The notes under the pieces are model-generated. The model searched no databases. It saw only the letters and a program-made list of their open reading frames with translations, and was not told where the DNA came from. DNA of 64,000 nucleotides, taken from Escherichia phage vB_EcoP_PE006. The DNA lies in the sequence record OQ938541.1; one strand, written 5' to 3'. The translations under genes were made by a program, and so were the position numbers. Of the stretch, positions 51,565-51,939 are shown in pieces; the stretch's first letter is position 1, and every line of letters starts with the position of its first letter.

Positions 51565-51750
51565 TTACAGCATAGCAAGAATGATAATAAGAGGTAATGT
51601 TATAGCGAAATTAATAAGAACAGCGCTGCCTAGCTTGATAGCTTTAACATCCTCTTCTGATGGGTTTTCTTTAATTGCTAAATTTCGAGCTTTATATATA
51701 ACAGTACCAATTATTAACGACCACACGGCCCACACAATCAGTGAAATCAT
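51565..51750 (-). CDS. small two-TM membrane protein (61 aa)
   Basis: Two hydrophobic segments around a charged loop; tandem paralog of 51760..51939. Confidence 0.45.
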   Translation of the reverse strand: MISLIVWAVWSLIIGTVIYKARNLAIKENPSEEDVKAIKLGSAVLINFAITLPLIIILAML

Positions 51751-51759
51751 ATCAAACCC

Positions 51760-51939
51760 TTATGCAGTCAGGAGGTGAAGCAGGAATGGGATAACAACAG
51801 CTACGACAACCATGATGGTTGATGCTGTTTGAATCTCACCTTTCTTGTCAGGAGTTTCTTCAATAAGCTTGCCAGAAGCCCAATAGATACCACCACCAAT
51901 AAAGACAGCCCAAATACCCCATACGATTGCTGATAACAT
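51760..51939 (-). CDS. small two-TM membrane protein (59 aa, below the track cut-off), paralog of 51565..51750
   Basis: Manual translation MLSAIVWGIWAVFIGGGIYWASGKLIEETPDKKGEIQTASTIMVVVAVVIPFLLHLLTA aligns with MISLIVWAVWSLIIGTVIYKARNLAIKENPSEEDVKAIKLGSAVLINFAITLPLIIILAML. Confidence 0.45.
   Translation of the reverse strand: MLSAIVWGIWAVFIGGGIYWASGKLIEETPDKKGEIQTASTIMVVVAVVIPFLLHLLTA

Follow-up and report, generated by a model that had tools for sequence, protein, structure and literature searches.

The window analyzed here, the whole 64,000-nucleotide stretch of Escherichia phage vB_EcoP_PE006 (OQ938541.1), carries on its minus strand a tandem pair of very small genes, A and B, which are almost certainly real and code for paralogous proteins with two transmembrane (TM) segments each. 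Both are already catalogued: they occur as hypothetical proteins in the public records and are grouped in PHROG 9296, the family of gp66 from phage phiEco32. A is a core gene held at a fixed position, in the order Dps-like gene, intergenic hairpin, A and thioredoxin gene, and B is an optional cassette. As to their function, we tentatively favor, with rather less than even confidence, a reading in which the two proteins are inner-membrane hairpins made in mid-infection that bind or modulate a membrane component. The precedent for this would be superinfection exclusion, and the proteins would not be hole-forming holins.

By sequence similarity, the window phage is a Kuravirus, i.e., a phiEco32-like podovirus of the subfamily Gordonclarkvirinae. 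A megablast search with positions 51000..52700 recovered 96 related phage records, of which Escherichia phage 172-1 is the closest, aligning over the full query at 98.9% identity, and NJ01 the next (97.6%). Late structural genes occupy the plus strand from about 7 to 37 kb; beyond about 37 kb come the middle and early genes, encoded on the minus strand. The block containing A and B belongs to the latter (Table 1). The thioredoxin gene of this block starts in the ORF list with a TTG codon (108 aa), whereas the relatives annotate an ATG at 51374 (90 aa, beginning MSKVIKFY); with that start its overlap with the adjacent 58-aa gene disappears.

Table 1. Features of the block around genes A and B, listed in the minus-strand reading direction, with the overlapping 84-aa ORF last
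Feature	Position in window	Strand	Remarks
AATGTATA motif	52926..52933	-	gp36 consensus (motif search); 40 nt upstream of the gp68-like gene
gp68-like gene, 109 aa		-	between the AATGTATA motif and the Dps-like gene
Dps-like gene	52001..52564	-	directly before the intergenic hairpin and gene A
G+C-rich hairpin, 11 pairs	51965..51993	-	after the Dps-like stop codon, before gene A; from terminator scan
Shine-Dalgarno-like AAGGA	51949..51953	-	9 nt upstream of the gene A ATG
Gene A, 59 aa, ATG start	51760..51939	-	predicted two-TM hairpin; PHROG 9296, phiEco32 gp66 ortholog
Shine-Dalgarno-like AAGGG	51757..51761	-	overlaps the gene A stop; 6 nt upstream of the gene B ATG
Gene B, 61 aa, ATG start	51565..51750	-	diverged paralog of A; PHROG 9296; accessory cassette
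58-aa gene	51376..51552	-	PHROG 19504; adjoins gene B
Thioredoxin gene	51102..51428 (ORF list)	-	after the 58-aa gene
69-aa gene, then ThyX		-	after the thioredoxin gene
84-aa ORF, other frame	51801..52055	-	judged spurious, not a gene

The initial annotation had described the 59-aa and 61-aa ORFs as a pair of two-TM paralogs, the first of them missed by the ORF track, and we find both ORFs on the minus strand exactly where it had placed them. Gene A is indeed absent from the track, but this reflects nothing more than a 60-aa cut-off, and both genes are annotated in the public records. The proteins are each 100% identical to proteins of phages 172-1 (ORF85 and ORF84) and NJ01 (NJ01_080 and NJ01_079), and A is 97% identical to phiEco32 gp66; GenBank labels all of these as hypothetical proteins. 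Their paralogy is borne out by a BLASTP match between A and B (33% identity and 59% positives over 58 residues, E=6e-11), by segment-wise shuffles and by a common family match. As composition alone can make membrane proteins resemble each other, B was permuted inside its TM1, loop and TM2 segments separately. The Smith-Waterman score of 96 for the native pair compares with 31+/-7.5 for shuffled B (z=8.6) and was reached in none of 5000 shuffles, showing that the likeness goes beyond a shared hydrophobic composition. In a scan of PHROG profiles, PHROG 9296, described as of "unknown function", matches both proteins end to end (A residues 1-59 of 59, E 5.2e-34; B residues 1-61, E 1.7e-29), and no other PHROG family matches either of them.

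Short ORFs are abundant in this A+T-rich DNA, with 30 ORFs of at least 30 aa within 2.5 kb as the chance background, and the gene status of A and B therefore rests on conservation. All A orthologs, down to those with 49% identity, have an intact frame of 59 aa. Between closely related pairs, the differences in the A and B frames are enriched at third codon positions and dN/dS is 0.07-0.3; by gene, the estimates are 0.1-0.5 for A and 0.2-0.3 for B. Judged from these substitution patterns, both frames are under purifying selection. The Shine-Dalgarno-like motifs point the same way: that of A is kept as 'ataaggat' in eight relatives of the Kuravirus group and takes the form AAGGAG in a metagenomic relative, and that of B is identical in KBNP1711. 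We also considered an upstream in-frame start for A and rejected it, because in the window the frame is closed by a stop five codons ahead of the ATG.

An alternative explanation is that A and B are untranslated and that, if anything is expressed in their place, it is the 84-aa ORF of the other frame. This ORF is longer than A, and small ORFs like A and B are expected by chance in DNA of such composition. However, stops interrupt the 84-aa frame in six relatives (WFI101126, 4E8, EP335, Bas89, EK010 and KBNP1711), and in the same comparison the A frame is always open at constant length. The 84-aa ORF begins within the Dps-like gene, runs past the stop codon of that gene and through the conserved intergenic hairpin, has no match in PHROG or Pfam and is annotated in none of the relatives' records examined. 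The suspicion voiced in the initial annotation that it is spurious is thus upheld, and together with the selection acting on the A and B frames this makes the alternative extremely improbable. Translation across the hairpin yields the peptide "TSALSPNPRWGEL", whose frame is that of gene A in Bas89 and KBNP1711 but not in the window, which shows that the hairpin region is non-coding. Such reading through the hairpin also explains two 84-aa versions of gene A in the protein database (P0003 and P0006), which come from short contigs and are N-terminal over-extensions across the intergenic region. They are unrelated to the 84-aa alternative-frame ORF of the window, even though the lengths are equal.

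Every one of the 96 records with a Kuravirus-type Dps-like gene also has the gp66 family. When sorted by identity, about 69 of these have a phiEco32-type A, three have an EP335-type version (~69% identity) and about 24 have a divergent version, A' (~50% identity). B is carried by 43 of the 96, paired with either A or A', and phiEco32, SU10 and Bas89 have A without B. The placement of A between the Dps-like and thioredoxin genes is the same in 172-1, NJ01, WFI101126, phiEco32, 4E8, EP335, Bas89, EK010 and KBNP1711, and in the metagenome contigs L016 and L017.

Searches beyond these records returned little else. By tblastn, the family was found in no organism outside these phages of E. coli and Shigella; among 5.8 billion proteins, a profile search picked out 19 clusters, all of the gp66 family, and a scan of IMG/VR gave five loci, all Kuravirus-like. 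When 1.84 billion representatives were searched exhaustively with HMMER, a single remote homolog was added, P0021 (56 aa, E 8e-4), which shares an IPFL(I/L)HL motif with the family and is found on two metagenome contigs in the context of ferritin/Dps, TM, thioredoxin and ThyX genes; used alone as a query, it returned only itself. Another candidate from the HMMER search, P0020, was discarded as a repetitive false match. In the Grimontviridae phages GAP52, SE131 and PKM.Lu.22.1, the Dps-like gene is present and its two-TM neighbor is absent.

Gene A is the fastest-diverging gene of its block, with 49% identity against 82-93% for its neighbors in the comparison with EK010 and KBNP1711. B, the 58-aa gene and other small genes are gained and lost as whole cassettes at junctions made up of a stop codon, a Shine-Dalgarno sequence and an ATG, and the junction of B directly follows the stop of A. 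The fast divergence of A, the variable copy number and the exchange of cassettes would fit a role in molecular interaction or in an arms race.

Several further observations concern this neighborhood. The 58-aa gene is independent of B, being carried without it by EK010 and EP335, and a homolog of 51 aa is encoded by PKM.Lu.22.1, a distant phage of the Grimontviridae (L019 729..884). The interval from the Dps-like gene to ThyX is a hot spot for cassettes: EP335, EK010 and XT18 have HNH homing endonucleases there (e.g., L007 2123..2605 and L009 2578..3045) along with variable small genes. Duplication of small genes is common in this region. Three paralogs of about 69 aa, dispersed or in tandem, lie on the minus strand at 50896..51105, 52959..53168 and 53168..53377; two of them match PHROG 4939 ('TRKEAR' motif), and the metagenome contig L016 has three copies in tandem. 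A second tandem pair of small paralogs is found at 46904..47188 and 47190..47441 on the same strand (55% identity over 40 residues, E 2e-14).

In the proteome of SU10, gp65, gp67 and gp68 were detected and gp66 was undetected, as is common in proteomics for membrane proteins as small as this one (6 kDa). The temporal class of the SU10 genes was assigned by homology to phiEco32: CDS25-68 form the middle class, in which the gp66 ortholog CDS66 is flanked by CDS65 (thioredoxin) and CDS67 (Dps) (PMC4281155). By the same homology we infer that A and B are middle genes. The motif AATGTATA is the consensus for the phage sigma factor gp36, and both this consensus and the boundaries of the middle genes were taken from earlier studies (PMC4281155, PMC8948821). 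It has six exact matches in the window, at 15195, 32223 and 41686 on the plus strand and at 41613, 47870 and 52926 on the minus strand, a number that is not significantly enriched, given that 8 of 100 shuffles reach six; at least three of the matches lie just upstream of gene starts (15236, 41553 and 52886). The one at 52926 is probably the middle promoter of an operon that reads through to A and B. The hairpin that would have to be traversed folds as RNA with -18.5 kcal/mol (z=-2.5) and is followed by a broken U-tract. Across relatives, its stem is kept and its loop is variable, and contig L016 has another hairpin at the same place. It may act as an attenuator, a terminator or an mRNA-stabilising element.

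The two-TM architecture put forward in the initial annotation agrees both with a hydrophobicity scale and with an AlphaFold2 model. In both A and B, two stretches of about 19-22 residues are hydrophobic; on the Hessa scale, the insertion energies of 19-residue segments range from -1.4 to +1.3 kcal/mol. All of their charged residues fall within the central loop, at residues 20-39, and there are none after position 39; the proteins end inside TM2 (...HLLTA and ...ILAML), without a charged C-terminal tail. The AlphaFold2 model, built from an 11-sequence alignment, has a mean pLDDT of 92, with helices at residues 2-28 and 30-58 and a break at T29/P30. Residues invariant across the family are M1, S3, I5, W7, W10, G15, Y19, E28, P30, I36, S40, P51 and L56. 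Each protein is thus predicted to form one tight helical hairpin, in which a charged segment of about 15 residues turns at the conserved E-(N/T)-P. By the positive-inside rule and simple scales, both termini are predicted to be periplasmic and the loop cytoplasmic.

In a Foldseek search of the PDB with the model, the hits are almost exclusively c subunits of F-type ATPases (TM-score ~0.8, rmsd 1.3 A over 52 residues), all at non-significant E values of 0.3 or higher, and a fold search of BFVD returned only the family itself. A profile search of the PDB sequences gave chance matches only, one of which, a designed helical repeat, has the same 'IKENPD' loop. These structural matches bear on a rival possibility, namely that A and B target a machine of the host inner membrane and thereby reprogram host physiology instead of keeping other phages out. 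They could join or poison the c-ring of the F-ATPase as c mimics lacking the carboxylate, or they could inhibit a transporter, a protease or the divisome. The predicted hairpin has the orientation of subunit c, with both termini outside and a polar, proline-containing loop in the cytoplasm, and the core conservation of the family and its middle-phase expression, as deduced by homology, would suit a takeover of the host. Against this, c subunits dominate the membrane hairpins of the PDB. Moreover, no sequence similarity to them was detected: c subunits are absent at E<=10 from an HMMER profile search of the PDB sequences, and the proteins do not match the Pfam family PF00137. The acidic residue of the second helix is missing in every member of the gp66 family. 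Membership in the c-subunit family was rejected for lack of both the sequence signal and the carboxylate, and the resemblance is probably generic to membrane hairpins. Overall, we consider a host-machine target unlikely. A more specific proposal is that the gp66 family as a whole consists of c-subunit mimics without the carboxylate that join or cap the c-ring of the host, or form a ring of their own, to control membrane energetics, the second paralog giving hetero-oligomers. We regard this as very improbable; if true, such mimicry would be a new kind of phage device for host takeover.

Two-TM proteins of this size also bring to mind lysis proteins, and the initial annotation had called them typical of holins, pinholins or superinfection-exclusion factors, remarking at the same time that the pair lies far from the lysozyme and spanin-like genes. 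The remark holds, the endolysin being encoded at 21281..21772 and the spanins at 40254..40773, but a holin role finds little favor in what we observe. In its strongest form, this explanation would make A and B a true holin, or a holin/antiholin or pinholin pair, which accumulates in the inner membrane and is triggered to form holes that release the endolysin. The proteins are small and have two TM segments, and A is found in all of the 96 relatives, as expected of an essential lysis function; the endolysin, in which no SAR or signal sequence is obvious, needs a holin. The spanin genes, on the minus strand, consist of a PHROG 1152 Rz-like gene and an overlapping ORF of PHROG 2425 and are located in the middle cluster beside the sigma-factor gene. 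They are about 19 kb from the endolysin gene, so the lysis genes of this phage are dispersed.

The canonical position directly upstream of the endolysin gene is filled by a 72-aa protein (21033..21251, plus strand) that matches PHROG 11161, labeled "holin". This protein has a single N-terminal hydrophobic segment with a signal-peptide-like end (VSA|V), followed by 43 residues with two cysteines, and the segment could equally be read as a signal peptide. The PHROG label appears to be positional, and the literature calls the protein a putative holin, so its presence somewhat weakens the case for A and B as holins. Features of A and B themselves also weigh against that case. They lack a charged hydrophilic C-terminal tail, all charges being in the loop, and they have no holin profile match in Pfam or PHROGs (in Pfam, even at E<=1, the only match is the sub-threshold DUF4310). 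Class II holins have both termini in the cytoplasm (N-in/C-in), the opposite of the orientation predicted for A and B. The genes lie, by homology, among the nucleotide-metabolism genes of the middle cluster, 30 kb from the endolysin gene and on the opposite strand, and B is missing from more than half of the relatives. Taken together, a holin role in this form is quite improbable, and we give a slightly smaller chance to the variant in which A and B represent a tail-less N-out/C-out class of holins expressed from a middle operon.

We return to the reading in which A and B are modulators acting inside the inner membrane. A and B would share the transcript of the middle genes, which include those of nucleotide metabolism; it would start at the promoter before the gp68-like gene and continue past the hairpin. 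The proteins would insert into the inner membrane with their termini outside and the E-(N/T)-P loop in the cytoplasm. There, small as they are, they could bind another membrane component or modulate it during mid-infection, a role other than that of a hole-forming holin. B, as an extra paralog, might broaden or retune the specificity. For such proteins in virulent coliphages, the role with the best documentation is to keep out the genomes of superinfecting phages, and by a reasonable analogy the best precedent would be Imm of phage T4, which does so at the inner membrane. This small protein binds the tape-measure protein and so prevents translocation of the genome; it has 83 aa and four helices, its N-terminus is periplasmic, and a periplasm-facing loop contacts the target (bioRxiv 10.64898/2026.03.06.709160). 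Two features argue against exclusion as the specific function. That A is retained without exception among the relatives would be more usual for an essential function in the lytic cycle, and the predicted N-out/C-out topology would leave almost nothing of A and B in the periplasm, unlike the situation in Imm. Scans of A, B and their 58-aa neighbor against Pfam, NCBIfam and PADLOC gave nothing meaningful, and A and B match neither PF14373, the Imm family, nor any other family in these collections. More broadly, no homolog with a known function was found in Pfam, NCBIfam, PADLOC or the PDB sequences, or in the searches of 5.8 billion proteins and 1.84 billion representatives.

In itself, the finding is an ordinary one, given that annotations of these genes as hypothetical proteins exist for about 96 phage genomes and that the "missed ORF" is an artefact of the length cut-off. 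What it brings out is that gp66 is a strictly conserved and fast-evolving membrane protein in a group of phages used for therapy and biocontrol, with a duplicate that comes and goes as a cassette. Should gp66 turn out to exclude other phages, to time lysis or to modulate a membrane complex of the host, this would close one gap in what is known about phiEco32-like phages, and gp66 would be a very small and tractable addition to the class concerned.

Among known systems, A and B belong outright to the PHROG 9296/phiEco32 gp66 family itself, a set of hypothetical proteins from Kuravirus, Nieuwekanaalvirus and Suseptimavirus; phiEco32 has one gene of this family, whereas the window phage has two. 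With the class II holins and pinholins, such as S68 of phage 21, they have in common that they are phage-encoded, about 60-70 residues long and equipped with two transmembrane helices. They differ from these in the missing charged tail, the opposite predicted topology, the middle-cluster location away from the endolysin gene and the absence of a holin profile match. Subunit c of the F-type ATP synthases (PF00137) offers the same predicted orientation in a helical hairpin with a polar, proline-containing loop, but A and B are shorter, have no ion-binding carboxylate in helix 2 and show no sequence relationship to it. T4 Imm (PF14373), and in its logic gp15 of HK97, is comparable as a small inner-membrane protein of a virulent coliphage made before the late phase. 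Relative to Imm, A and B are bare two-helix hairpins that share no sequence similarity with it and have almost no predicted periplasmic exposure.
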